A stretch of 64,000 bases of DNA, taken from an uncultured Oscillospiraceae bacterium (GTDB taxonomy: Bacteria > Bacillota > Clostridia > Oscillospirales > Oscillospiraceae). Each line of letters opens with the position of its first letter. Positions within the stretch are counted from its first letter, which is position 1. The notes beneath the pieces were generated by a model. It did not search any database. It was given only the letters and a program-made list of their open reading frames with translations, and had not been told where the DNA came from. This document shows positions 26,583-63,816 of the stretch, in pieces. The translations under genes were made by a program, and so were the position numbers. The DNA is taken from NCBI GenBank assembly GCA_910585815.1, contig CAJUFJ010000003.1, positions 17,696-81,695 on the forward strand. The letters run 5' to 3'.

Positions 26583-27005
26583 ATGGTAAGAACATTTCAG
26601 GCCGGCGATTTAGACACTGTCATGTCCATCTGGCTGAACGCCAATATAGAAGCCCATCATTTTGTTGACCCGGAATACTGGAGAAGCTGCTACAACACGG
26701 TCAAAGCCATGATCCCACAGGCGGAGGTTTACGTTGCGGAAGACGACCGTAGAATCAACGGCTTTATCGGCATTGCAGGCGACTACATCGCGGGCATATT
26801 TGTAGACAGCTCAGCCAGGACGGGCGGGATCGGCAGTCAGCTGCTCGACCATGCCAAAGAGAACCGGCAGAAGCTGAGCCTGAGCGTCTACAAAAAGAAT
26901 GTAACTGCGGTGTCGTTTTATCGCAAGCGAGGTTTTCAAATCGACGCAGAGGGCGTTGACCCACAGACGTCGGAATCAGAGTACACCATGAGCTGGAATA
27001 GATAG
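26583..27005 (+). CDS. GNAT-family N-acetyltransferase
   Basis: The R.GGIGSQLL..A segment is an acetyl-CoA binding pattern. A TTGACC-17-TATACT promoter lies at 26522-26550. Confidence 0.85.
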   Translation: MVRTFQAGDLDTVMSIWLNANIEAHHFVDPEYWRSCYNTVKAMIPQAEVYVAEDDRRINGFIGIAGDYIAGIFVDSSARTGGIGSQLLDHAKENRQKLSLSVYKKNVTAVSFYRKRGFQIDAEGVDPQTSESEYTMSWNR

Positions 27006-27044
27006 AAAGGAGGGACGCCGGGACCTCAGATCCTCCCAGATTAC

Positions 27045-27076
27045 CAGGTCAACAAAATAAAAATTTTGTTGACCTG
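27045..27076. repeat. perfect 14-bp inverted repeat
   Basis: CAGGTCAACAAAAT-AAAA-ATTTTGTTGACCTG lies immediately upstream of the recombinase gene. Confidence 0.6.
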
Positions 27077-27088
27077 AGTGGAGGCGAA

Positions 27089-28120
27089 TTGCTGTTATTT
27101 GAGGAATCCGGCCTGTCTATGGACTACCGCACTGAAGCGCCGCCTATTCTCCGGGACTTTCTGGTCTACCACGAGACCATTCAGGGACATTCCCGCCGGA
27201 CGGTTGACGAATACTGCTTAGACCTGCGGAACTTTTTCCGCTTCCTGAAACAGAACAAACGCCCGGCATTCAAAGATGTCCCACTGGACGATATCTCCAT
27301 TGACGATGTGGACCTGTCTCTGGTCCGGGACGTCACTCTGACGGATATCTATTCCTACATGAACTACCTGTCCCGGGACCGCGGCCTGAACAACACGTCC
27401 CGGGCCCGCAAGGTGGCCACCATCCGGTCCTTTTACAAATACCTTACCAACAAGGCCAAGCTGCTGGAGACCAACCCCGTCCAGGACCTAGATTCGCCCA
27501 GGTTGAAGAAATCCCTGCCGAAATACCTGAATCTGGATGAAAGTCTGGACCTTTTGGACAGTGTAGACGGCAAAAACGCCAATCGGGATTATTGCATTTT
27601 GACCCTGTTCCTCAACTGCGGCCTGCGTATCTCTGAGCTGGTTGGGCTAAATAAAACAGATGTTAGGGGCGATCAGCTGCGGGTACTGGGCAAAGGTAAC
27701 AAGGAGCGGATGCTGTATCTGAACGACGCCTGTCAGCGGGCGCTGGCAGACTGGCTCGATGAGCGGGACGCCATGACCTTGGTGGACCAGAACGCCCTGT
27801 TTGTCACCCTCCAGAACCGCCGTCGCATCTCCACCGCGGCGGTCCACAAGCTGGTGAAAAAGCACCTGGCCGCCGCCGGGCTGGACAGCACCCAGTACTC
27901 CTCCCACAAGCTGCGCCACACCGCCGCTACGCTGATGCTGCAAAACGGCGTGGATGTACGTACCCTTCAGGAGGTGCTGGGCCACGACCACCTGAACACC
28001 ACGCAAATCTACACCCATGTGGACAACGAGGACCTGCGCACTGCCGCCAGAGCCAATCCGCTGGGTGGGGTCCGGCAAAAGAAGAAGCCGAAAAAATCTA
28101 AAAATGGAGAGGAAACGTGA
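27089..28120 (+). CDS. tyrosine recombinase (XerC/XerD-like integrase family)
   Basis: SAM-like N-domain, LRHTAAT...LGHDHLNTTQIYTHV catalytic region and a Lys-rich tail. Start is uncertain (TTG 27089 or ATG 27119). Confidence 0.85.
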   Translation: MLLFEESGLSMDYRTEAPPILRDFLVYHETIQGHSRRTVDEYCLDLRNFFRFLKQNKRPAFKDVPLDDISIDDVDLSLVRDVTLTDIYSYMNYLSRDRGLNNTSRARKVATIRSFYKYLTNKAKLLETNPVQDLDSPRLKKSLPKYLNLDESLDLLDSVDGKNANRDYCILTLFLNCGLRISELVGLNKTDVRGDQLRVLGKGNKERMLYLNDACQRALADWLDERDAMTLVDQNALFVTLQNRRRISTAAVHKLVKKHLAAAGLDSTQYSSHKLRHTAATLMLQNGVDVRTLQEVLGHDHLNTTQIYTHVDNEDLRTAARANPLGGVRQKKKPKKSKNGEET

Positions 28121-39197: not shown

Positions 39198-40094
39198 TCA
39201 CGCCCGGGGGTGGGCCTTTTTGTATACATCCTTGATTTTCTGGTTAATCAGCTTGGAGTAAATCTGAGTGGACGAGATATCCGCATGGCCCAGCATCTCC
39301 TGAATGGACCGCAGGTCGGCCCCGTTCTCCAGCAAGTGGGCGGCGAAGGAATGGCGCAGGGTGTGGGGCGTAATGTCCTTCTGAATGCCCGCCTTCTCCT
39401 GATAATATTTAATCAGCTTCCAGAAGCCCTGACGGCTCATCCGCTCGCCGCTCATGTTCACAAAAAGGGCCGTCTCATCCACCGAATCCACCAGCTGGGG
39501 CCGCACGCTGTTTATATACTCCCCCAAGGCCCGGATCGCCGTGGGATACAGGGGGATGACGCGCTCCCGGCCCTTGCTGAAGCATTTCAGCACCCCGCCG
39601 GGCAGGTTCAGGTCGTCCACATCCAGCTCGATGAGCTCGCTGACCCGGATGCCCGTGGCATAGAGCAGCTCCAGCATGGCCCGGTCCCGGTAGCCCTTTA
39701 AATCGGTGCATTCGGGCTGTTCTAAAAACAGCTCCACCTCTTTGCTGGTAAGCACCTGAGGCAGCTTGCGCTCCACCCTGGCGGGGGCCACCCCCTTCGC
39801 CGGATTCTGGCCCACATATCCCTTGCCAATCAGGCAGGTGTAAAAGGACTTGATGGAGGCCACCGACCGGGTGACAGTGGCAGGGGACTTCCCCCGCTTC
39901 ACCAGGGAGTTGGCATAGTCCTCCACGTCGCGGGCCACCACCTGGGTGAGGTCCACCCCCCGGCCATCCATCGCCGTGGCAAACTGGTTGACGTCACGGA
40001 GGTAGGAGCTGACTGTGTTGGCCGAGGCCTGCTTTTCAATTTTTAAAAAGTCCTCATAGGCCAACAGCAGTTCAGACACGTCCACAACTCCCAA
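39198..40094 (-). CDS. xerD: tyrosine recombinase XerD-like
   Basis: LRHSFAAHLLENGADLRSIQEMLGHADISSTQIY catalytic region and a SAM-like N-domain. Confidence 0.88.
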   Translation of the reverse strand: MGVVDVSELLLAYEDFLKIEKQASANTVSSYLRDVNQFATAMDGRGVDLTQVVARDVEDYANSLVKRGKSPATVTRSVASIKSFYTCLIGKGYVGQNPAKGVAPARVERKLPQVLTSKEVELFLEQPECTDLKGYRDRAMLELLYATGIRVSELIELDVDDLNLPGGVLKCFSKGRERVIPLYPTAIRALGEYINSVRPQLVDSVDETALFVNMSGERMSRQGFWKLIKYYQEKAGIQKDITPHTLRHSFAAHLLENGADLRSIQEMLGHADISSTQIYSKLINQKIKDVYKKAHPRA

Positions 40095-40109
40095 CCTTTG
40101 TTACAGATG

Positions 40110-53930: not shown

Positions 53931-54027
53931 CAGATTGACAGGAGCGGCTTTGCGCCGCTCCTGCTTCCCTTTTTCTTGTTTTTTCTATCGGTTTATGTTA
54001 TAATTCTGGCACTTGGGAGGCGAAAGG

Positions 54028-54453
54028 ATGAAAACTATTCAGGAGCTGGAGCAGTATCTGGAGGAGAACTGCTACAATTTTGACAGCATCACCATCGGCC
54101 GCCACTACGCCTACGAGGGCCTGGTGGTGAAAAACTGCGCCCTGGGGTACTGTCTGTTCTCGTCGGAACGGGGCCATGAGACCCTGCTCAAAGCCTTCCA
54201 AACCGAGGAGGAGCTGGTAACCTACACCTTGTCCTACCTGGACAGGGACCCCTGGTACAAAGCCCACATCGTTGCGTTTACCTTTGACCAACAGCAGATT
54301 CAAAAGGCGGAAAGTGAGTTAAAATGGATGAGAATCCGATACAAACGCAACGATATCCCATACCGCGCAGGACAGACCGCCTACCGAATCTTTGTGTACG
54401 GGCGGGATATCCTTCGTCTGGAGCAGTTTAAGCGACAGTACATGCAGCGCTAA
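54028..54453 (+). CDS. hypothetical protein
   Basis: The ATG at 54028 is preferred; the track ORF starts at TTG 54013. No family recognised. Confidence 0.55.
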   Translation: MKTIQELEQYLEENCYNFDSITIGRHYAYEGLVVKNCALGYCLFSSERGHETLLKAFQTEEELVTYTLSYLDRDPWYKAHIVAFTFDQQQIQKAESELKWMRIRYKRNDIPYRAGQTAYRIFVYGRDILRLEQFKRQYMQR

Positions 54454-54465
54454 CGGGAGTCTTTT

Positions 54466-54843
54466 ATGGACATAATCAAGAAAATCAGGAAACTGTATCA
54501 GGGCAATATTCTGCTCCACCCACCGTATCTGGGAGAAAACACCGAGGAAATCCCGGAAAAACTCCTGTCCATTCTGCGCATCAGCAACGGGATTAGTGAG
54601 ACGATAGTCCACCCCAAGTCCGGCGAAAAAATTGTGATTGAATGGATTATCTACCCCTATGAGATGATGGTGAGCGACACCGCTTTTTATCGGACGGAAT
54701 ATCAAGTGGAGGGCATTGTATTTTCTGGTGACGGGGCCGGAAACCCCTATTTGCTCAAATCAAACGGGACGGTCACGCAGTTCGATGGAATAGACGGCAC
54801 GGAGACCGAAAAGGCGCATTCCCTTGAGGATTTTTTTGGCTGA
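54466..54843 (+). CDS. SMI1/KNR4 (SUKH)-like protein
   Basis: IPEKLLSILRISNG and FSGDGAGNPYLL motifs. Confidence 0.65.
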   Translation: MDIIKKIRKLYQGNILLHPPYLGENTEEIPEKLLSILRISNGISETIVHPKSGEKIVIEWIIYPYEMMVSDTAFYRTEYQVEGIVFSGDGAGNPYLLKSNGTVTQFDGIDGTETEKAHSLEDFFG

Positions 54844-55515: not shown

Positions 55516-55869
55516 GTGACTGTATTGGAACTGGACGATGTATTGGTGATTGCCCTGGTTCTATTCAATCTCCTGCTCTCGATTCATCGAATCAGACAGC
55601 GGAATTTACAAACCAAATCAGAGGGAGAGCCATTCCTGAAAGAACATGTCCAGCTCCAGTCGAAGTCTAAACAGGGCTGGCTTAACAAATGGATCACAGA
55701 GGTCCTGTATCTCCATTTTCAGGTTCTCGACCGCGATGCCGTTTTGACCTGTAAAGTTTCGCAAAATGTGTGGGACCAATTTCAAAAAGGAGATCAGGGT
55801 CTTCTCTCCCATCAGGGAGGAATCTTTGTCTCTTTTACACGGGATTTTGACGGTAAAATTATAACCTGA
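55516..55869 (+). CDS. DUF2500-like protein
   Basis: N-terminal TM segment and the KGDQGLLSHQGGIFVSFTRD motif. GTG start. Confidence 0.65.
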   Translation: MTVLELDDVLVIALVLFNLLLSIHRIRQRNLQTKSEGEPFLKEHVQLQSKSKQGWLNKWITEVLYLHFQVLDRDAVLTCKVSQNVWDQFQKGDQGLLSHQGGIFVSFTRDFDGKIIT

Positions 55870-55902
55870 CTACGTACCGGTTAAGTTTTATCAAATTGCG
55901 AT

Positions 55903-56304
55903 GTGACAGCACTCACAGGTATTATCAAGGAGGAATTAAATTTGGAATTTTCCATTTTCTTGATATTTACTGCAATTATTTGTACTCCCATCTTTCTGTT
56001 TGGTCATCGCATGGACAACCTGCACGACAAATCAAAGGGTGAACCGGTTTTGACCGAAAAAGCCCGGCTGCACGCAAAGGAAGAATATGGAAAATATGGC
56101 GGTATAAAATACCTCAATTTTTATATCCCTGAAAGGGATACCGTTGTTGTGTGCAAAGTCCCAGATAATATTTGGACATATCTTCCAAAAGGAGATTGGG
56201 GTATGCTTTGTCATCAAGGCGGAACCTTTTTCTCCTTTACACGGGACTGTAACGGAGAAGTCATAACCGCCAATACCATACACGGCAACAGCCTGAATGA
56301 ATAA
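55903..56304 (+). CDS. DUF2500-like protein (tandem paralog)
   Basis: TM segment and the KGDWGMLCHQGGTFFSFTRD motif. GTG start; the start is uncertain. Confidence 0.6.
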   Translation: MTALTGIIKEELNLEFSIFLIFTAIICTPIFLFGHRMDNLHDKSKGEPVLTEKARLHAKEEYGKYGGIKYLNFYIPERDTVVVCKVPDNIWTYLPKGDWGMLCHQGGTFFSFTRDCNGEVITANTIHGNSLNE

Positions 56305-57147: not shown

Positions 57148-57333
57148 ATGATTTTGAGCCTCATTGCCTGCACCGACCCCTGCGTCTATCAGAAGGAGGG
57201 CTACTGCTCCCTGTCCCGGGCGGCCTCCGCCGGGGAGCCGGGGCAGTCCAGGTGCATCAACTTTGTACCAACCCAGCCCCTACAGCAGCGCGGCCATAGC
57301 CTCCCGGATGTTGGCCACCCGGATCAGCTCTAA
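57148..57333 (+). CDS. small cysteine-motif protein
   Basis: LIACTDPCVYQKEGYCSL...RCINFVP resembles a small conserved clostridial protein I recall. TTG at 57154 has better RBS spacing. The tail overlaps the radA 3' end. Confidence 0.45.
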   Translation: MILSLIACTDPCVYQKEGYCSLSRAASAGEPGQSRCINFVPTQPLQQRGHSLPDVGHPDQL

Positions 57334-58650
57334 CCCCTCGGGGACCGCCAGCTTGCCCTGGGCGCGCTTTGGAATCATGCACTTTGTAAAGCCTAAACGC
57401 TTTACCTCTGCCAGCCGCTGGCCCAGGGCGCTGGCCGCCCGGAGTTCGCCGGTAAGGCCCACCTCCCCGATGGCGGCCAGGTCGTTGGGGACGGGCCTGT
57501 CCCGAAAGCTGGATGCCAGAGCCAGAATGGCGGCCAGATCGGCGGCGGGCTCCTCCAGATACAGCCCGCCAATCACGTTGACATACGCGTCGCAGCCGCC
57601 CACCATCAGGCCGCCCCGCTTCTCCAGAACGGCCAGCAGCAGCATGGAGCGGCTGTAGTCAAAGCCGTTGCTCACCCGCCGGGGGTTGCCCAGGCTGGAG
57701 GGCACCACCAGGGCCTGAATCTCCGCCAGCACCGGCCGCACCCCCTCCATCACGCAGGTGACACAGGTGCCGGGGGAGTCGGTAGGCCGGCCGGCCAGCA
57801 TGGCTTCGGAGGGGTTGGGCACCTCCGTGAGTCCCACATCCTCCATCTCAAAGACGCCGATCTCGTTGGTGGCACCGAAGCGGTTTTTGGCCGCCCGGAG
57901 GATGCGGTAGGCCATGTGCCGCTCCCCCTCGAAATAGAGGACGCAGTCCACCATATGCTCCAGCACCTTGGGCCCGGCGATGGACCCCTCCTTGTTCACA
58001 TGTCCGATGACAAAAACGGTAATATTCTCCCCCTTGGCCAGCTGCATCAGTGTCAAGGTACATTCCTTTACCTGGCTTACGCTGCCTGGGGCGGAGGTCA
58101 CATCCCCGTGGTACAGGGTCTGGATGGAGTCCACAATGAGCACGTCGGGCTGGAGCTGGTGAACGGCGTCCACCAGGTTCTCCAGGTTGGTCTCCGCCAG
58201 CAGGTAGAGCCCCTCTCCCCGCACTCTCAGCCGCTCCGCCCGCAGCTTGATCTGCCGCTCCGACTCCTCCCCCGATACATACAGCACCTTGGCGAAGCGG
58301 CACAGATTGTCGCAGATTTGCAGCATCAGGGTGGACTTGCCGATGCCCGGCGCGCCGCCCACCAGCACCAAGGAACCCTTTACCGCTCCCCCGCCCAGCA
58401 CCCGGTCCAGCTCCCCCATGCCGGTGGCAAAGCGCAGTTCGTCGGTGGTCTCCACCTCCTTCATGGGCCGGGGGCGGTTGATGGCCACCCCGGTTACGGA
58501 GCCCCCCTTCACCGGCCCGGACCGCTTGGCGGGCTTCTCCGCCGGCTGCTCCACAATGGTGTTCCACGCCCTGCACGCCGGGCACTGCCCCGCCCACTTG
58601 GGCAGCTCGTTGCCGCAGTCGGTGCAGTAAAATAAAGTCTTAGCTTTCAT
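57280..58650 (-). CDS. radA: DNA repair protein RadA
   Basis: N-terminal Zn finger CTDCGNELPKWAGQCPAC, Walker A GAPGIGKST, KNRFG motif and a Lon-like C-terminus. Confidence 0.95.
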   Translation of the reverse strand: MKAKTLFYCTDCGNELPKWAGQCPACRAWNTIVEQPAEKPAKRSGPVKGGSVTGVAINRPRPMKEVETTDELRFATGMGELDRVLGGGAVKGSLVLVGGAPGIGKSTLMLQICDNLCRFAKVLYVSGEESERQIKLRAERLRVRGEGLYLLAETNLENLVDAVHQLQPDVLIVDSIQTLYHGDVTSAPGSVSQVKECTLTLMQLAKGENITVFVIGHVNKEGSIAGPKVLEHMVDCVLYFEGERHMAYRILRAAKNRFGATNEIGVFEMEDVGLTEVPNPSEAMLAGRPTDSPGTCVTCVMEGVRPVLAEIQALVVPSSLGNPRRVSNGFDYSRSMLLLAVLEKRGGLMVGGCDAYVNVIGGLYLEEPAADLAAILALASSFRDRPVPNDLAAIGEVGLTGELRAASALGQRLAEVKRLGFTKCMIPKRAQGKLAVPEGLELIRVANIREAMAALL

Positions 58651-58664
58651 ATGTTCTCCTTTGT
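58584..58664. repeat. copy 1 of duplicated radA RBS + first 22 codons (functional copy)
   Basis: Aligns with 59296-59380. It contains a 32-nt identical core, CCCGCCCACTTGGGCAGCTCGTTGCCGCAGTC, plus GTGCAGTAAAATA and the TGTTCTCCTTTGT RBS region. Confidence 0.85.
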
Positions 58665-59270
58665 TCAGAGCAACTTTTTGTTGTTTTCGCCCACTGCTTC
58701 GATCAGCCGGCCTTTTTCAAACACAGCAATTGTACCCACTGGAAAGTGCAGGATACTGATGGCCTGCTCGCAGAACCGGCGCAGCTGGTAGGTATACGCC
58801 TTGGCATAGTCCTCCAAGCTAGACGGCCCACTGAAGAAAACGGACGTGCAGGTCCAGCCGGAATCGCCGTTTTCTGGAGCGGTGTCTCGAATCATGTAGA
58901 TTCTGTCCGCGCTCAGCGCCCCTGTCTCAACAATCAGCGTATCCTGAAAGGTTGTTTCCAACGGTTGAATCCCCGCATGGCTGATTGCTTTAGACTGCTC
59001 CTTAAAGTAGGTCAGTGCCAGGGACAAGTCCGGGGTACTGTCTTCAAAGGGATTTTTAGTATAATCCAGAGCGAAAAGTTGGTATTGTCCCTCTTTTTCC
59101 ACCACACGAAAGTAGTTCCATCCAATTTGGAGCAGTTCTCCGTCCCGCAATACGTTGTATTGTTCCTCCTGATTGCGGATGATTCGGGCCAGGAATTCCG
59201 CCGCTGTGCTCAAAGCCGCATCGGCCAAAAAGAAATACTCCTTATGGCCAATCTGATATTGGTACCGCAT
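58665..59270 (-). CDS. hypothetical protein with DUF2185 (Imm33)-like C-terminal region
   Basis: C-terminal ...PENGDSGWTC... motif. The ATG at 59270 follows GAGAAGGGG. Its stop abuts the radA RBS. Confidence 0.6.
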   Translation of the reverse strand: MRYQYQIGHKEYFFLADAALSTAAEFLARIIRNQEEQYNVLRDGELLQIGWNYFRVVEKEGQYQLFALDYTKNPFEDSTPDLSLALTYFKEQSKAISHAGIQPLETTFQDTLIVETGALSADRIYMIRDTAPENGDSGWTCTSVFFSGPSSLEDYAKAYTYQLRRFCEQAISILHFPVGTIAVFEKGRLIEAVGENNKKLL

Positions 59271-59293
59271 ATTTTGTCCCCTTCTCTTTTGCT

Positions 59294-59362
59294 TTACTGG
59301 CCCGCCCACTTGGGCAGCTCGTTGCCGCAGTCAGTGCAGTAAAATAGGGTTTTTGCCTTCAT
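59294..59362 (-). pseudogene. radA 5' stub (22 codons + stop)
   Basis: Encodes MKAKTLFYCTDCGNELPKWAGQ*, identical in protein to RadA residues 1-22 but with synonymous DNA differences. Confidence 0.8.
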
Positions 59363-59380
59363 GGATCTGTTCTCCTTTGT
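59296..59380. repeat. copy 2 of duplicated radA RBS + first 22 codons
   Basis: See copy 1. The offset between copies is about 712-716 bp. Confidence 0.85.
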
Positions 59381-59397
59381 GTGACGGTTATAGTATT

Positions 59398-59856
59398 TCA
59401 AACACGCTTTTTCATCACATCATAGCATAAAAAGTCATGGTTATCGGTGGGAAGCATGTGGTAGCTGACCGCCTCATATCCCCGTTTCAGATACATCCCT
59501 TTCGCCGGGAACGAGGCAGCCAGAACAATCTCGGAGGCCTGACCGGAGACCGTTTTCTCTGCATAATCAAGCATTTCCGTGCCATACCCTTTTCCCTGAA
59601 ACGCAGGCAAAACAAATAACCGGCATATCTCATTCCCCGATACCGTAACAGTGCCTACAACATTCCCCGCTGCGTCCTGACAGAGAAACACCTGATTCTG
59701 TTCAATATCATGGACAATATTGGCCTCGCTGTGATGCTTAAGGAAAAAATCCACCGCTCCCCTGGGGTAATAATGGGGATATACCTCAGATATTGTGCTT
59801 TCAACAACATATTTTACCGTGTTCAGATCGGACAGGACCGCTTGTCTCAGGCACAT
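59398..59856 (-). CDS. GNAT-family N-acetyltransferase
   Basis: LFVLPAFQGKGYGTEML acetyl-CoA binding pattern. Confidence 0.85.
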   Translation of the reverse strand: MCLRQAVLSDLNTVKYVVESTISEVYPHYYPRGAVDFFLKHHSEANIVHDIEQNQVFLCQDAAGNVVGTVTVSGNEICRLFVLPAFQGKGYGTEMLDYAEKTVSGQASEIVLAASFPAKGMYLKRGYEAVSYHMLPTDNHDFLCYDVMKKRV

Positions 59857-59915
59857 TTTTGTTCACCGCCGCCGTCTCATTTTCAGCCTGATTTTACCAC
59901 AAACAGCGCCCGGAT

Positions 59916-60623
59916 TCAAGGGGCAGTCAGCCATGCGGCGGCGATGACGGCGGACAGCCTGCGCTGGTAGTCCTCGTCCCGAAGCATGGCTTCCTCCTCC
60001 GGGTTGGTGAGAAATCCACACTCGATGAGGATGGCGGGACAGGTGACGTGATTCATTATGTAAACTGTATCGGGAATCTGCTTTACAGCCCGCTCATTTT
60101 CAGGCTGTAGGGCGGCTTTTATGCTGTTCTGGAAGTGCTCCGCCAGCTCCTGAGACCCCTCGGTGGGGGCGTAAAAGACGTGGGTCCCGTGGTAGCGGCT
60201 GCCGGGGTAGGTGTTCTGGTGGATGCTGAGCAGGGTCCCCCCCTCCACCGCCTCAACGGCCGCCACCCGGTTCTTCAGATCGGACCGCTTTTTCTCCCGC
60301 AGGGTGCCGGCGCCGCTGTCATGGAGGGAAACGTCTTCCTCCCGGAGCAGGATGGGGTCCACCCCGTACAGGCCCAGCACATCCCGCAGCTTGAGCACGA
60401 TAGCCAGGTTGATTTTGCTCTCCGGGACGCCGGTAATGGACACCGCCCCCCCGTCCTCCCCGCCGTGGCCGGCGTCCAACACCAGCGGGCCGGTCCGCTG
60501 AACGGCCGACGGCTCCATGGCCGGCTCCACCAGGCTGTTCAGCCGGCCCAGGGCCAGCGCCAGCAGCACCACTGTGCCAATGAGCGCCCCGGCCAGCAGG
60601 ATACCTTTTTTCAATACGACCAC
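59916..60623 (-). CDS. cwlD: N-acetylmuramoyl-L-alanine amidase, CwlD-like
   Basis: TM N-terminus, LDAGHGGEDGGA and SIHQN motifs (Amidase_3). Confidence 0.85.
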   Translation of the reverse strand: MVVLKKGILLAGALIGTVVLLALALGRLNSLVEPAMEPSAVQRTGPLVLDAGHGGEDGGAVSITGVPESKINLAIVLKLRDVLGLYGVDPILLREEDVSLHDSGAGTLREKKRSDLKNRVAAVEAVEGGTLLSIHQNTYPGSRYHGTHVFYAPTEGSQELAEHFQNSIKAALQPENERAVKQIPDTVYIMNHVTCPAILIECGFLTNPEEEAMLRDEDYQRRLSAVIAAAWLTAP

Positions 60624-61260: not shown

Positions 61261-61761
61261 ATGTTTCATTATGAGAAAAAACTGCAATTTCCGGTGAAGA
61301 TCGCCACCCCAAACCCCAAGCTGGCCGCCTTTATCATCAGCCAGTACGGCGGGCCCGACGGCGAACTGGGGGCCTCCATGCGCTACCTGTCCCAGCGGTA
61401 CGCCATGCCCTACGCCGAGGCCAAGGGCTTACTCACCGACATTGGTACGGAGGAGCTGGGCCATATGGAGATGGTGGCGGCCATCGTCCACCAGCTGACC
61501 CGGAACCTCAGCGACGAGGAGGTCCGGGCCAACCCGTCCTTTGCCCCCTACTTCGTGGACCACACCACCGGGGTCTACCCCACCGCCGCCTCCGGCTTCC
61601 CCTGGAGCGCCGGCTCCATCCAGTCCACCGGCGACGTCATCGCTGACCTGACCGAGGACCTGGCCGCGGATGAGGCGATGGTGGAAGTGCAACATGACCG
61701 GAAACCGTTGAGAACACTGGATTGTTGGTGGGACAAGCCTTTTCCGGCGGCGATGGTGTAA
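61261..61761 (+). CDS. cotJC: CotJC / manganese-catalase-family protein, C-terminally divergent/truncated
   Basis: YEKKLQFPVKIATPNP...GELGASMRYLSQRY...GTEELGHMEMVA is typical. After ...LTEDLAAD (about 61670) the sequence no longer resembles the family. Confidence 0.75.
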   Translation: MFHYEKKLQFPVKIATPNPKLAAFIISQYGGPDGELGASMRYLSQRYAMPYAEAKGLLTDIGTEELGHMEMVAAIVHQLTRNLSDEEVRANPSFAPYFVDHTTGVYPTAASGFPWSAGSIQSTGDVIADLTEDLAADEAMVEVQHDRKPLRTLDCWWDKPFPAAMV

Positions 61762-61874
61762 GGACAACCTGATAAAATTTTTGATGGGACAAGCTGTTTC
61801 CAAGGTAAAGATTTTGATTTCAGTAGGAGGACACATACAGGTATCCTCCTGCCGCATTATCATTTTCCCTTCCC

Positions 61875-61930
61875 TGTAGGAAAATCTTAAGAAAATCCGT
61901 AGAGAAATTTGAGAAAATTACTGGTATAAT
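61875..61930 (+). promoter_or_regulatory. operator array + promoter upstream of the vanR-like gene
   Basis: Four 11-bp-phased units, TGTAGGAAAAT / CTTAAGAAAAT / CCGTAGAGAAA / TTTGAGAAAAT, are followed by TGGTATAAT (-10 at 61925-30). Confidence 0.5.
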
Positions 61931-61966
61931 AAGTTCAAATCCGTCTTTAGAACAAGGAGCAACAAA

Positions 61967-62668
61967 ATGAGCACTCATATTTTAGTGGTAGATGATGAAA
62001 AAGAACTGGCTGATGTGATAGAGCTTTATCTCACCAACGATGGCTATACTGTCCATAAATTTTACACCGGCGCGGAAGCCCTGGACTGTATTGAACATAC
62101 CCATTTAGACCTGGCAATTTTGGATGTGATGCTCCCGGACGCGGATGGCTTTCAAATCTGCAAAAAGATCAGAGAAACCTCCTACTACCCTGTCATTATG
62201 CTGACCGCAAAGGCGGCGGACGGGGACAAGATCATGGGGCTGACCATCGGAGCTGACGATTACATCACAAAACCCTTTAATCCTTTGGAAGTCGTTGCCA
62301 GGGTAAAGACCCAGCTTCGACGGTATATGCACTATAACAATCCTCCAGCAAAGCCGGAAAAACCGGCCCATGAATACGATATTCGAGGGCTTGTCATTAA
62401 CAAGGACAATCACAAATGCTTCCTGTTTGGGAGAGAATTGCAGCTGACCCCTATCGAGTTTTCCATCCTCTGGTATCTCTGCGAGCGGCAGGGAATTGTC
62501 GTTTCTTCCGAAGAATTGTTCGAGGCAGTATGGGGCGAGAAATTCCTGCAAAATAACAATACTGTCATGGCCCACATCGGGCGGCTGCGGGAGAAAATGG
62601 GCGAACCAGCCAGAAACCCTAAATTCATCAAAACCGTATGGGGGGTAGGGTATACCATTGAAAAATAA
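61967..62668 (+). CDS. OmpR-family response regulator, VanR-like
   Basis: ILVVDDE...LDLAILDVMLPDADG...GLTIGADDYITKPFNPLE plus a winged-helix C-terminus. Close in pattern to VanR as recalled. Confidence 0.88.
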   Translation: MSTHILVVDDEKELADVIELYLTNDGYTVHKFYTGAEALDCIEHTHLDLAILDVMLPDADGFQICKKIRETSYYPVIMLTAKAADGDKIMGLTIGADDYITKPFNPLEVVARVKTQLRRYMHYNNPPAKPEKPAHEYDIRGLVINKDNHKCFLFGRELQLTPIEFSILWYLCERQGIVVSSEELFEAVWGEKFLQNNNTVMAHIGRLREKMGEPARNPKFIKTVWGVGYTIEK

Positions 62669-63776
62669 AGCTAACCACGAGTTTCGCCAGCTCCGTGTTA
62701 AGATTTTTCTCCGCACCATCGCTATGCTGGTGATTTCCGCCTCTATAGTCTACATCACATACTCTGTTCTCCTGCGGGGCAACTTTGCGAACCTGATGAT
62801 GGCCCTTCTGCAAAATATTTTTGGCATGGACTACGATGCGGCCCTTAATCTATATGACCGGATATTCCGAAGCCACATGGACGCTATCATTTTGCTGTCT
62901 ATTCTTGTCGTATTTATTTGCCTGCTTTCCGTTTTTCTCCATTGGATCACCAGATATTTTGAGGAAATCAACAAGGGGATGGAAACGCTGCTCCAAGATG
63001 CTCCCGGAGAAATCTCCCTGTCCCCGGAGCTGCTTTCCATTGAGCGGAAAATGAATATCGCAAAGCATACCTTTGACCGGCAGAAAAGCGATATGCTGAT
63101 TTCCGAACAGAAAAAGAATGATCTTGTCATGTATCTGGCTCACGACTTGAAAACGCCCCTGGCCTCCTCTATCAGCTACCTGAACCTACTGCGGGACGAA
63201 AAGCAGATTTCGGAGGAATTGCGTGAAAAGTATCTTTTCATTTCTCTTTCCAAGGCGGAGCGTTTGGAGGACTTAATCAACGAGTTTTTGGAAATCGCCA
63301 AATATAACCTGTCCACAATCACGCTGCAATATCGGGAAATCAATCTGACCCGCCTCCTGGAGCAGCTTGTCTATGAGTTTCAGCCGATTTTAGAAGAAAA
63401 GGGCCTGACCTGCCGTCTTGTGGCGGCAGACGATATCATGCTGAACTGTGACGCCGACAAGATGCAGAGGGTATTTGACAATCTTTTGCGAAATGCCGTC
63501 GTTTACAGCTACGACCAAACGGAGATCACCATTGAGGCCGAAAGAGGCGATAGTGGGGTTACGTTACAATTTTCCAATCACGGCGGGACAATTCCAAAAG
63601 AAAAGCTGGAACGGATTTTTGAGCAGTTTTACAGGCTGGACACAGGGCGCGGTACAGACGGGGCCGGGTTGGGCCTTGCGATTGCCAAGCAAATCGTTGC
63701 GCTCCACAAGGGGACAATTGCGGCGGAGAGCAGGGACGGCCTGACGGTTTTTACTGTAACACTTCCTGTTTTGTAG
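62658..63776 (+). CDS. sensor histidine kinase, VanS-like
   Basis: Two TM segments, an H-box MYLAHDLKTPL, an N-box DNLLRNAVVYS and a G-box GAGLGLAIAK. TTG start overlaps the regulator end. Confidence 0.88.
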   Translation: MKNKANHEFRQLRVKIFLRTIAMLVISASIVYITYSVLLRGNFANLMMALLQNIFGMDYDAALNLYDRIFRSHMDAIILLSILVVFICLLSVFLHWITRYFEEINKGMETLLQDAPGEISLSPELLSIERKMNIAKHTFDRQKSDMLISEQKKNDLVMYLAHDLKTPLASSISYLNLLRDEKQISEELREKYLFISLSKAERLEDLINEFLEIAKYNLSTITLQYREINLTRLLEQLVYEFQPILEEKGLTCRLVAADDIMLNCDADKMQRVFDNLLRNAVVYSYDQTEITIEAERGDSGVTLQFSNHGGTIPKEKLERIFEQFYRLDTGRGTDGAGLGLAIAKQIVALHKGTIAAESRDGLTVFTVTLPVL

Positions 63777-63816
63777 GAAAATTGTTAGAAAATTCGTAGG
63801 GAAAACGCAAAACAAA
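63772..63816 (+). promoter_or_regulatory. second copy of the operator array
   Basis: TGTAGGAAAAT / TGTTAGAAAAT / TCGTAGGGAAA mirror the 61875 array. The array overlaps the kinase stop codon. Confidence 0.5.

Follow-up and report, generated by a model that had tools for sequence, protein, structure and literature searches.

A truncated second copy of the radA 5' end flanks an Imm33-like gene in an uncultured Oscillospiraceae bacterium and its relatives

Cis-mobilisable elements (CIMEs), known from streptococcal families of integrative and conjugative elements (ICEs), are integrase-less stretches of DNA between att sites and are moved by an ICE integrase. Here we describe a unit of comparable outline in 64,000 nucleotides (nt) of DNA from an uncultured Oscillospiraceae bacterium (GCA_910585815.1, contig CAJUFJ010000003.1, positions 17,696-81,695; this whole stretch is called the window, or W). 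A single gene for an Imm33-like protein lies there directly upstream of the DNA-repair gene radA, between the start of the intact radA and a second, truncated copy of that start, which we call the stub. Like a CIME, the unit is small, has no recombinase and lies between direct repeats of its target; unlike CIMEs, it has no ICE or integrase that we could find for the radA site. In the reading that we favour, and which we hold to be moderately probable, the stub is the scar of a single illegitimate recombination that fused two old cwlD-radA layouts, and it was later spread and lost by homologous recombination.

Other described systems share part of this anatomy. SXT/R391 elements insert in the 5' coding region of prfC, as the unit described here does in radA, and in both cases the incoming DNA supplies a new 5' end and the gene stays functional (PMC2791158). 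SXT, however, is about 100 kb long and has its own tyrosine integrase, an Xis and a short att core, whereas our unit measures 712 bp, consists of one gene without any recombinase, and is bounded by a repeat that is 67-80 nt of plain gene homology. For the arrays of the Vibrio cholerae type VI secretion system (T6SS) and for Rhs loci, it has been proposed that a homologous anchor combined with an illegitimate join keeps an orphan immunity gene in place (PMC5361080). The arrangement at radA resembles both T6SS effector-immunity arrays and the displacement of C-termini in Rhs and contact-dependent inhibition (CDI) loci (PMC5361080): a conserved gene would serve as homologous anchor and the other end would be joined illegitimately, the older immunity gene is kept, part of the conserved gene remains as a stub, and alleles would later be shuffled by homologous recombination. 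It differs from them in that the anchor is a downstream housekeeping gene for DNA repair, in that the 5' end rather than the 3' end is duplicated, and in that there is no toxin gene and only one displaced unit. Finally, Imm33 and DUF2185 were defined as immunity domains tied to toxins with an HNH-fold nuclease (Zhang et al. 2012, PMC3482391). As in the polyimmunity or orphan immunity loci with Imm33 (PMC3482391), the gene has an Imm33-like domain with no cognate toxin alongside, and other small immunity-type genes (SUKH, Imm70) are found nearby in the same genome; in contrast to those loci, it is not within a polyimmunity array and is tightly linked to radA in every lineage found.

A direct repeat around one gene

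Our repeat search identified a 67-nt direct repeat at 58584-58650 and 59296-59362 (90% identity, 712-nt spacing). A block with the ribosome-binding site (RBS) at 58649-58664 recurs at 59365-59380 (94% identity) with a spacing of 716 nt, from which it follows that the copies differ by a 4-nt indel. Among direct repeats of at least 40 nt and more than 76% identity, this is the only case in the window. The copies share an identical 32-nt core, GACTGCGGCAACGAGCTGCCCAAGTGGGCGGG, followed by one mismatch and 13 further identical nt; the core occurs twice, against 0.00 expected occurrences (100 shuffles). Both copies translate to MKAKTLFYCTDCGNELPKWAGQ, and all differences in codons 2-6 are synonymous. 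The open reading frame (ORF) of the upper copy is closed by TAA at 59296-59294. The single ORF between the copies (59270..58665) ends in TGA, directly followed by ACAAAGGAGAAC and the ATG of radA. All elements lie on the minus strand and are given here in their order of reading, with locus labels (L numbers) for the relatives that are described below:

59916..60623, minus strand: gene for a CwlD-like N-acetylmuramoyl-L-alanine amidase (Pfam Amidase_3; TIGR02883 spore_cwlD, 179 bits, below the cut-off of 221.55)
59891..59919, minus strand: promoter-like site, putatively functional, TTGAAT-17-TAAAAT with an upstream TG, kept in relatives as TGTGGTAAAAT / TGTGATAAAAT
59398..59856, minus strand: GNAT acetyltransferase gene, GC 0.47, in the slot between promoter and RBS (Pfam Acetyltransf_10, E = 4.5e-14)
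59363..59397, minus strand: native radA leader and RBS (CACACAAAGGAGAACAGATCC), now before the stub, matching the leader of the empty sites L005-L007, L110 and L111
59294..59362, minus strand: radA stub, codons 1-22 and then TAA, matching the empty-site radA of L005-L007 and L110/L111
59295..59296, minus strand: putative illegitimate junction; T59296 (radA nt 67) is the last radA-derived base and A59295 the first base of the Imm33 untranslated region (UTR)
59271..59295, minus strand: 5'UTR of the Imm33-like gene, 25 nt, AAAGCAAAAGAGAAGGGGACAAAAT, the same sequence in every stub-bearing contig, with homology to the UTRs of the stub-less L095 and L098
58665..59270, minus strand: Imm33-like gene, 201 aa (Pfam PF24719, 33.5 bits, cut-off 27, residues 91-187)
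58584..58664, minus strand: repeat copy fused to radA, consisting of the RBS ACAAAGGAGAAC and radA nt 1-67, codons 2-6 being AAA GCT AAG ACT TTA (repeat search and alignment); this RBS lies in the 14 nt between the Imm33-like gene and radA
57280..58650, minus strand: intact radA (sms), 456 aa (TIGR00416, 595.6 bits, cut-off 403; Pfam Zn_ribbon_LapB, AAA_25, Lon_C)

An earlier note on this DNA had described direct repeats that flank one gene, with the lower copy starting an intact radA and the upper one running into a stop, and all the details that we checked proved correct. The copies do differ mainly by synonymous changes in codons 2-6 and by an indel, which the note had put at 4-5 nt; the lone gene between them, whose stop abuts the radA RBS, has the DUF2185/Imm33-like C-terminus that it had recognised, as seen from the ORF and the PF24719 match. 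radA has indeed stayed intact: the C4 zinc ribbon at the N-terminus of the protein is complete, with CTDCGNELPKWAGQCPAC present, and the match to the TIGR00416 equivalog model is full-length.

The GC content is 0.65-0.71 in radA and the amidase gene and drops to about 0.47-0.55 over 58650-59880; the Imm33-like gene has 0.51, compared with 0.65-0.70 in radA. No convincing terminator was seen in the stretch from the GNAT gene to radA, and the promoter-like site at 59919-59891 probably drives co-transcription of the GNAT gene, the stub, the Imm33-like gene and radA.

Occupied and empty sites in relatives

We collected related loci by a RadA scan with one genome per species, which yielded 80 loci from Lawsonibacter, Colidextribacter, Pseudoflavonifractor and Flintibacter-type Oscillospiraceae. 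The amidase gene is the conserved upstream neighbour of radA across the family, with synteny in about 60 of the 80 loci. When these loci were searched in six frames for the zinc-ribbon start, a second, truncated copy turned up solely in the lineage of the window itself and in L009, a species-representative metagenome-assembled genome (MAG) with the occupied arrangement. Proteins identical to the Imm33-like protein, RadA and the GNAT protein are each encoded on 23 contigs, arranged as in the window. Scanning metagenomes with the junction sequence retrieved five further contigs (L101-L105), all with the order GNAT, stub, Imm33-like gene and radA, and the short contigs L100, L109, L112 and L113 are also occupied.

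Aligning the radA loci of relatives, as the earlier note had proposed, revealed empty sites in L005-L007, L110, L111 and L015. The GNAT gene is directly followed by radA, with no stub, in L005-L007, L021, L110 and L111. L005-L007 represent three species with a RadA 98-99% identical to that of the window, and their leader and first codons (..CACACAAAGGAGAACAGGTCT ATG AAG GCA AAA ACC CTA..) agree with the window's stub and not with the radA-fused copy (..TGAACAAAGGAGAACAT ATG AAA GCT AAG ACT TTA..). Compared with the empty sites, the leader at 59363..59397 has a sole difference of 2 nt just 5' of the ATG (GATCC versus GGTCT). Homology between empty and occupied sites ends abruptly after radA nt 67 (CAGT) and resumes 18 nt before the second ATG. 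Since the empty sites carry exactly the leader and first codons of the stub, the stub is the locus's own radA start; in L112 it equals nt 1-67 of the host radA with zero changes. One of the copies is foreign, as had been suspected: the stub matches the radA start of empty sites, and the radA-fused copy goes together with the Imm33-like gene throughout the lineages examined.

Downstream of the gene for one and the same GNAT protein (P0010), L110 and L111 have radA, and L109, L112 and L113 have the stub and the Imm33-like gene. Over 1086 nt, the empty L110 and the occupied L113 share 99.4% identity, with 459/459 identical nt in their GNAT genes, and this presence/absence polymorphism is recent. 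Occupancy varies even between these two, contrary to the possibility, raised with the earlier note, that all relatives carry the same stub.

All occupied contigs have an identical junction, in which CAGT is followed by AAAGCAAAAGAGAAGGGGAC; we followed it through AAAGCAAAAGAGAAGGGGACAAAAT to the Imm33 ATG. It was seen, as radA nt 67 joined to AAAGCAAAAG, in W, L009, L100-L105, L109, L112 and L113, and such a single junction sequence in all carriers is what a single origin requires. Two upstream contexts were observed. The GNAT gene precedes the stub in W, L009, L101-L105, L109, L112 and L113; in L100, the junction stands behind another small gene and a different, slot-type leader. L015 is the empty counterpart of L100, with the same slot-type leader before an intact radA.

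The alleles of the Imm33-like gene behind this one junction are up to 12-13% different and chimeric. The L112 allele combines an L009-like 5' part with a window-like middle, and the allele of the stub-less L095 is 96.5% identical to that of the stub-bearing L009. Over 12 kb, the best nucleotide match of the window switches segment by segment among L005, L007, L009 and L011; judging from these alignments, homologous exchange between these species is evidently frequent at this locus. We rejected an attempt to polarise the event by its flanks on account of this switching: with the locus being a mosaic of recombined segments, its 12 kb do not reveal the direction. When the Imm33-like gene of W is compared with the alleles of L009, L100 and L112, its N-terminal half proves much more diverged (79-94% nt identity) than the C-terminal half (90-95%), and the first ~75 nt and the UTR are nearly identical. 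This pattern suggests recombination breakpoints or diversifying selection on the N-terminal domain. We also noticed, in a MAG, an Imm33-like gene that breaks off near residue 28 and runs into unrelated sequence where the contig starts (L011:1-140), which is another rearrangement inside the gene.

The Imm33-like protein has an N-terminal part of ~90 aa without family match, followed by the part that matches PF24719; an NCBIfam profile search of the protein gave no match, and a 34%-identical homologue also carries PF09951. Searching 5.8 billion proteins, we obtained only nine clusters of homologues, with 95 to 34% identity. Every cluster with a readable context, including those down to 50% identity, is encoded directly upstream of radA, and the homologues share the 14-nt spacer of stop, RBS and ATG and the C-terminus ..N.KLL. 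Four lineages have the Imm33-radA pair and no stub:

L085-L092: amidase, 217 nt, Imm33-like gene (50% identity), radA
L093/L094 and L098/L099: amidase, promoter, Imm33-like gene (80% identity), radA
L095-L097: promoter, DUF4259 gene, Imm33-like gene (86% identity), radA

The amidase, RadA and Imm33-like proteins are 70, 89 and 50% identical to those of the window in L085, and 84, 91 and 80% identical in L093. The divergence of the Imm33-like gene tracks that of the host, and the gene looks like an old resident at radA. Its presence goes with a particular radA 5' codon type, AAA GCN AAG ACN TTA, found downstream of it in L009, L100, L095-L097, L093 and L098. Since the stub-less homologues adjoin radA and their divergence tracks the host, the seeming replacement 5' end in the window is the native radA start of Imm33 lineages.

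No cognate toxin gene was found beside the Imm33-like gene in any locus viewed, where the neighbours are the GNAT or amidase gene and radA; having no toxin neighbour, it is an orphan immunity gene at best. In the AlphaFold2 model of the protein (predicted local distance difference test score, pLDDT, 73), an N-terminal beta-beta-alpha-beta domain is confident and the C-terminal half weak. A Foldseek comparison of this model with the PDB returned nothing with E < 0.1; PUR-alpha and a SuFu homologue were discarded as structural hints (probability <=0.41), and we draw no functional inference from them. The tight and persistent placement before radA suggests co-expression with this DNA-repair gene, which, as a speculation, would suit protection against a DNase toxin.

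Origin and spread of the arrangement

The two layouts that would have been fused are a promoter, the GNAT gene (or another small gene), a leader and radA on the one hand (layout 1), and a promoter, the Imm33-like gene, 14 nt with an RBS and radA on the other (layout 2). Both exist today, the former in the five-locus set named above together with L021 and its GNAT-radA order (L005-L007, L021, L110, L111), the latter without a stub in L085-L099. In the founding event, nt 67 of the layout 1 radA would have become linked to the base with which the layout 2 Imm33 5'UTR begins, and the exchange on the other side would have been ordinary homologous pairing, as in homology-facilitated illegitimate recombination. 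In one direction, a fragment with UTR, Imm33-like gene, RBS and radA would pair with the resident radA, and its free left end would be joined after resident nt 67. In the other direction, a fragment with cwlD, GNAT gene, leader and radA nt 1-67 would pair in cwlD, and its free right end would be joined to the resident Imm33 UTR. Either direction would yield the product observed. In it, the two accessory genes would be retained and radA would stay intact, its translation now starting from the RBS and initial codons that always accompany the Imm33-like gene. An illegitimate join is needed at the origin because a stub-less locus has no left repeat, and excision cannot therefore yield the first stub.

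Once formed, the module of stub, UTR, Imm33-like gene, RBS and radA would have a left arm of 67-80 nt and the whole of radA as its right arm. Because radA homology is present on both sides, a RecA-type double crossover can move the module into other genomes; the stub would pair with the radA start of the recipient, and radA with radA. Recombination between the direct repeats would delete the module precisely and restore a radA with a stub-type 5' end, which has the look of an empty site. Spread and loss of this kind would lead to an identical junction in two contexts, to near-isogenic empty and occupied pairs and to mosaic alleles, and we infer that these processes shaped the locus. The earlier note had proposed that a cassette entered radA at codon 22/23 and brought, or left behind, a replacement 5' end. 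The different origin of the copies, the empty sites and the intact radA agree with this; the part about the replacement does not stand, that end being the native start of Imm33 lineages.

Several observations speak against the fusion that we favour. Microhomology at the junction is at most 1-4 nt (CAGT versus TAAT / TTAA in L095 / L098), where the UTRs compared are not the exact parental one. Entry into the second context needs a crossover within ~67-80 nt of homology, which is short for RecA-type recombination, and these Oscillospiraceae would have to possess natural competence or another route of DNA delivery. The GC content of the Imm33-like gene (0.48-0.55 across lineages) is atypical even where the gene is supposedly old, which also fits repeated acquisition. 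Identical junctions in several contexts would, moreover, be produced by a site-specific system as well.

Such a system would involve a mobile single-gene cassette, a 712-bp circle of UTR, Imm33-like gene, RBS and radA nt 1-67, that a recombinase acting in trans inserts at the core in radA codons 10-22. The anatomy agrees with it in that direct repeats like attL and attR bracket exactly one gene, near-identical relatives show empty and occupied sites, as expected of an integrative element, the same junction occurs in two upstream contexts, and the 5' end of the target is restored, as by SXT/R391 at prfC (PMC2791158). We nevertheless consider this explanation unlikely, since there is no recombinase in the unit or within 6 kb, as the earlier note had remarked for the adjacent genes. 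The only tyrosine recombinases in the 64 kb are XerD (39201-40100, minus strand; 344 bits, cut-off 329.6), about 18.5 kb from the unit, and a XerC-like gene (27002-28117, plus strand) about 30.5 kb away, both of them conserved and with close orthologues in relatives, and no serine recombinase was found in the window. Furthermore, the radA piece of the supposed element is contiguous with a full radA in stub-less, host-tracking lineages, so the first stub did not come from excision there, and positions of the core mutate freely in stubs. No cargo other than the Imm33-like gene was found at radA codon 22, or with a stub, in the 80 species-level loci, and the 32-nt core had 0 matches in viral contigs and none in plasmids; the idea that the core is a recurrent attachment site, following the logic of integrative elements, thus found no support. 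A related possibility, which we judge rather unlikely, does without a dedicated enzyme: a stub-bearing donor gives rise, by recombination of its repeats, to a small circle, and one RecA-dependent crossover of the Campbell type then inserts this circle into the 5' end of radA in a new host. The repeats (67 nt, 90-100% identical) would yield exactly such a circle, and its reintegration would be indistinguishable from the observed structure, but a non-replicating circle of 712 bp would have to pass between cells, a linear double crossover in which stub and radA act as arms needs fewer assumptions for the same product, and the origin of the first stub is left unexplained.

Alternatively, the stub might be maintained for a function in regulating the Imm33-like gene or radA, for example as an ORF for translational coupling or as a leader peptide. 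Its 22-codon ORF is intact in the window, L102, L109, L112 and L113, with a strong RBS and a stop 23 nt before the Imm33 ATG. The stubs of L009, L101 and L103-L105, however, have GTG instead of ATG and a 1-nt deletion (A5 to A4) that shifts the frame, and that of L100 is also frameshifted. Codons 19-21 vary freely across contigs (GGG, GGC, GGT, GAG-ACA or ACG), L102 has three substitutions within the core, and in stub-less loci the same gene pair does without it. With stubs broken in relatives, a functional leader peptide is very improbable, and the stub is a decaying sequence, probably without function of its own. An assembly artefact, finally, can be dismissed for practical purposes. The repeat does disturb assemblers, as several short-read contigs begin or end exactly at radA codon 22 (L039:1, L095:1197, L097:1094), but the full structure is spanned in many independent assemblies of different projects (the 23 contigs, L009, L101-L105, L100, L109, L112 and L113), and the copies differ between them. 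Such contig breaks are as expected where an assembly graph is split by the 67-nt repeat or by co-occurring stub-bearing strains; the MAG that holds L039 also holds a second radA contig, L023.

Two further candidates were set aside. A phage match (MT839280) proved to be a 4.4-kb piece of bacterial DNA from an unverified record, in which cotJ and cwlD are present and radA starts in the ordinary way. The other candidate, a larger element at the site, was considered for loci with no amidase within 5 kb upstream of radA (L030, L032, L035 and others), which have other synteny and no stub. As an aside, in more distant relatives a XerC-like orthologue lies directly downstream of radA (L085-L092), and a XerD-like gene directly upstream (L032).

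The cwlD-radA leader and its surroundings

Across the closest species, the interval between the amidase gene and radA ranges from 71 nt to >1.2 kb. We surveyed it in L008-L029, L095, L100 and L015. The leader of L008 is empty (96 nt), and ten other species have each one different low-GC (0.35-0.41) gene between the conserved promoter (TGTGATAAAAT) and the leader with the RBS. These slot genes encode DUF7677, DUF6487 (twice), DUF4259, small membrane proteins and uncharacterised proteins; in the window, the slot (interval 59363-59915) is taken by the GNAT gene, the nearest outside relatives of which are 64-69% identical, for example in [Clostridium] hylemonae. The slot boundaries recur: on the left ..ATAAATCG / GAATTTA.GGAG.. 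(AAATCG / GAATTTA, the slash marking the boundary), on the right stop..(A)AATTCC or AAATCG / AGTTTAT... None of the slot-gene loci has a radA stub, so the Imm33 scar is silent on how slot genes arrive. The suggestion in the earlier note that this scar may show how the other small cassettes moved does not hold for the slot genes of relatives, which sit between promoter and RBS.

The slot pattern would be accounted for by selection for insertions between promoter and RBS that are harmless and expressed. A more elaborate explanation, which seems to us decidedly unlikely, is that the cwlD-radA leader is an integron-like platform for gene capture, served by a site-specific recombinase in trans with no adjacent integrase, and that the Imm33-like gene with its stub is one more of its products. 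Promoter-less low-GC genes would then be swapped at the boundaries (AAATCG / GAATTTA.GGAG on the left, stop..AAATTCC / AGTTTAT on the right), which, joined end to end, would form the palindrome AAATTC-N-GAATTT. Inspection of the boundaries by eye for a dif-like or Xer-type site gave no convincing match to dif arms. A possible relic of the Imm33 3' end in the empty leader of L026 (30 nt, 83% identity, E = 0.14) was rejected as not significant.

Other variable sites were observed nearby. The Mn-catalase (cotJC-like) gene next to cotJA/B is cut at differing residues in relatives (about 32, 63, 138 and 150; compared were 61261-61761 and 61800-63800 of the window, L005, L008, L010, L085-L092 and L106). 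Foreign DNA follows the cut gene: L085-L092 have phage-like genes and TnpV there, and L106 / MT839280 has a serine recombinase of 562 aa. In the window, the Mn-catalase 3' end adjoins a low-GC island with a two-component system, VanZ and ABC genes. The site looks like an integration hotspot in a sporulation gene. Two low-GC islets stand among high-GC genes of the window at 54013-54843 and 55516-56304, one with a 146-aa ORF and a SUKH / SMI1_KNR4 gene, the other with two DUF2500 paralogues. They are patchy in relatives, the SUKH gene being present in 0/10 compared loci and DUF2500a (99.4% identical) in L011 only, and no flanking repeats were seen at either islet. Finally, a 61-codon Cys-rich ORF (MILSLIACTDPCVYQKEGYCSL..) at 57148-57333 on the plus strand is convergent with radA, and the two share 54 nt at the radA 3' end. 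Most of the 80 related loci have this ORF conserved (tblastn, 41-92% identity), and it may be a real small gene.

The radA locus is ordinary in mechanism and a clean example. Illegitimate-recombination scars that keep an orphan immunity-type gene are a known kind of event; what is new is that the 5' end of a housekeeping gene is involved and that the scar supplies a homology arm. For annotation, supposed radA 'genes' of 22 codons and contigs that break at codon 22 of radA should be taken with caution in these taxa, as products of the repeat. At the sequence level, the locus illustrates how accessory genes can be stacked before an essential-type gene of a gut commensal without loss of its integrity. 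A one-off illegitimate join would have left a 67-nt copy of the target that is now a built-in homology arm, through which ordinary recombination can add or remove one immunity-like gene in related species without mobile-element enzymes. In related species, a variety of small foreign genes has come to lie between the radA promoter and RBS, and this stretch may offer a general way of acquiring promoter-less genes.

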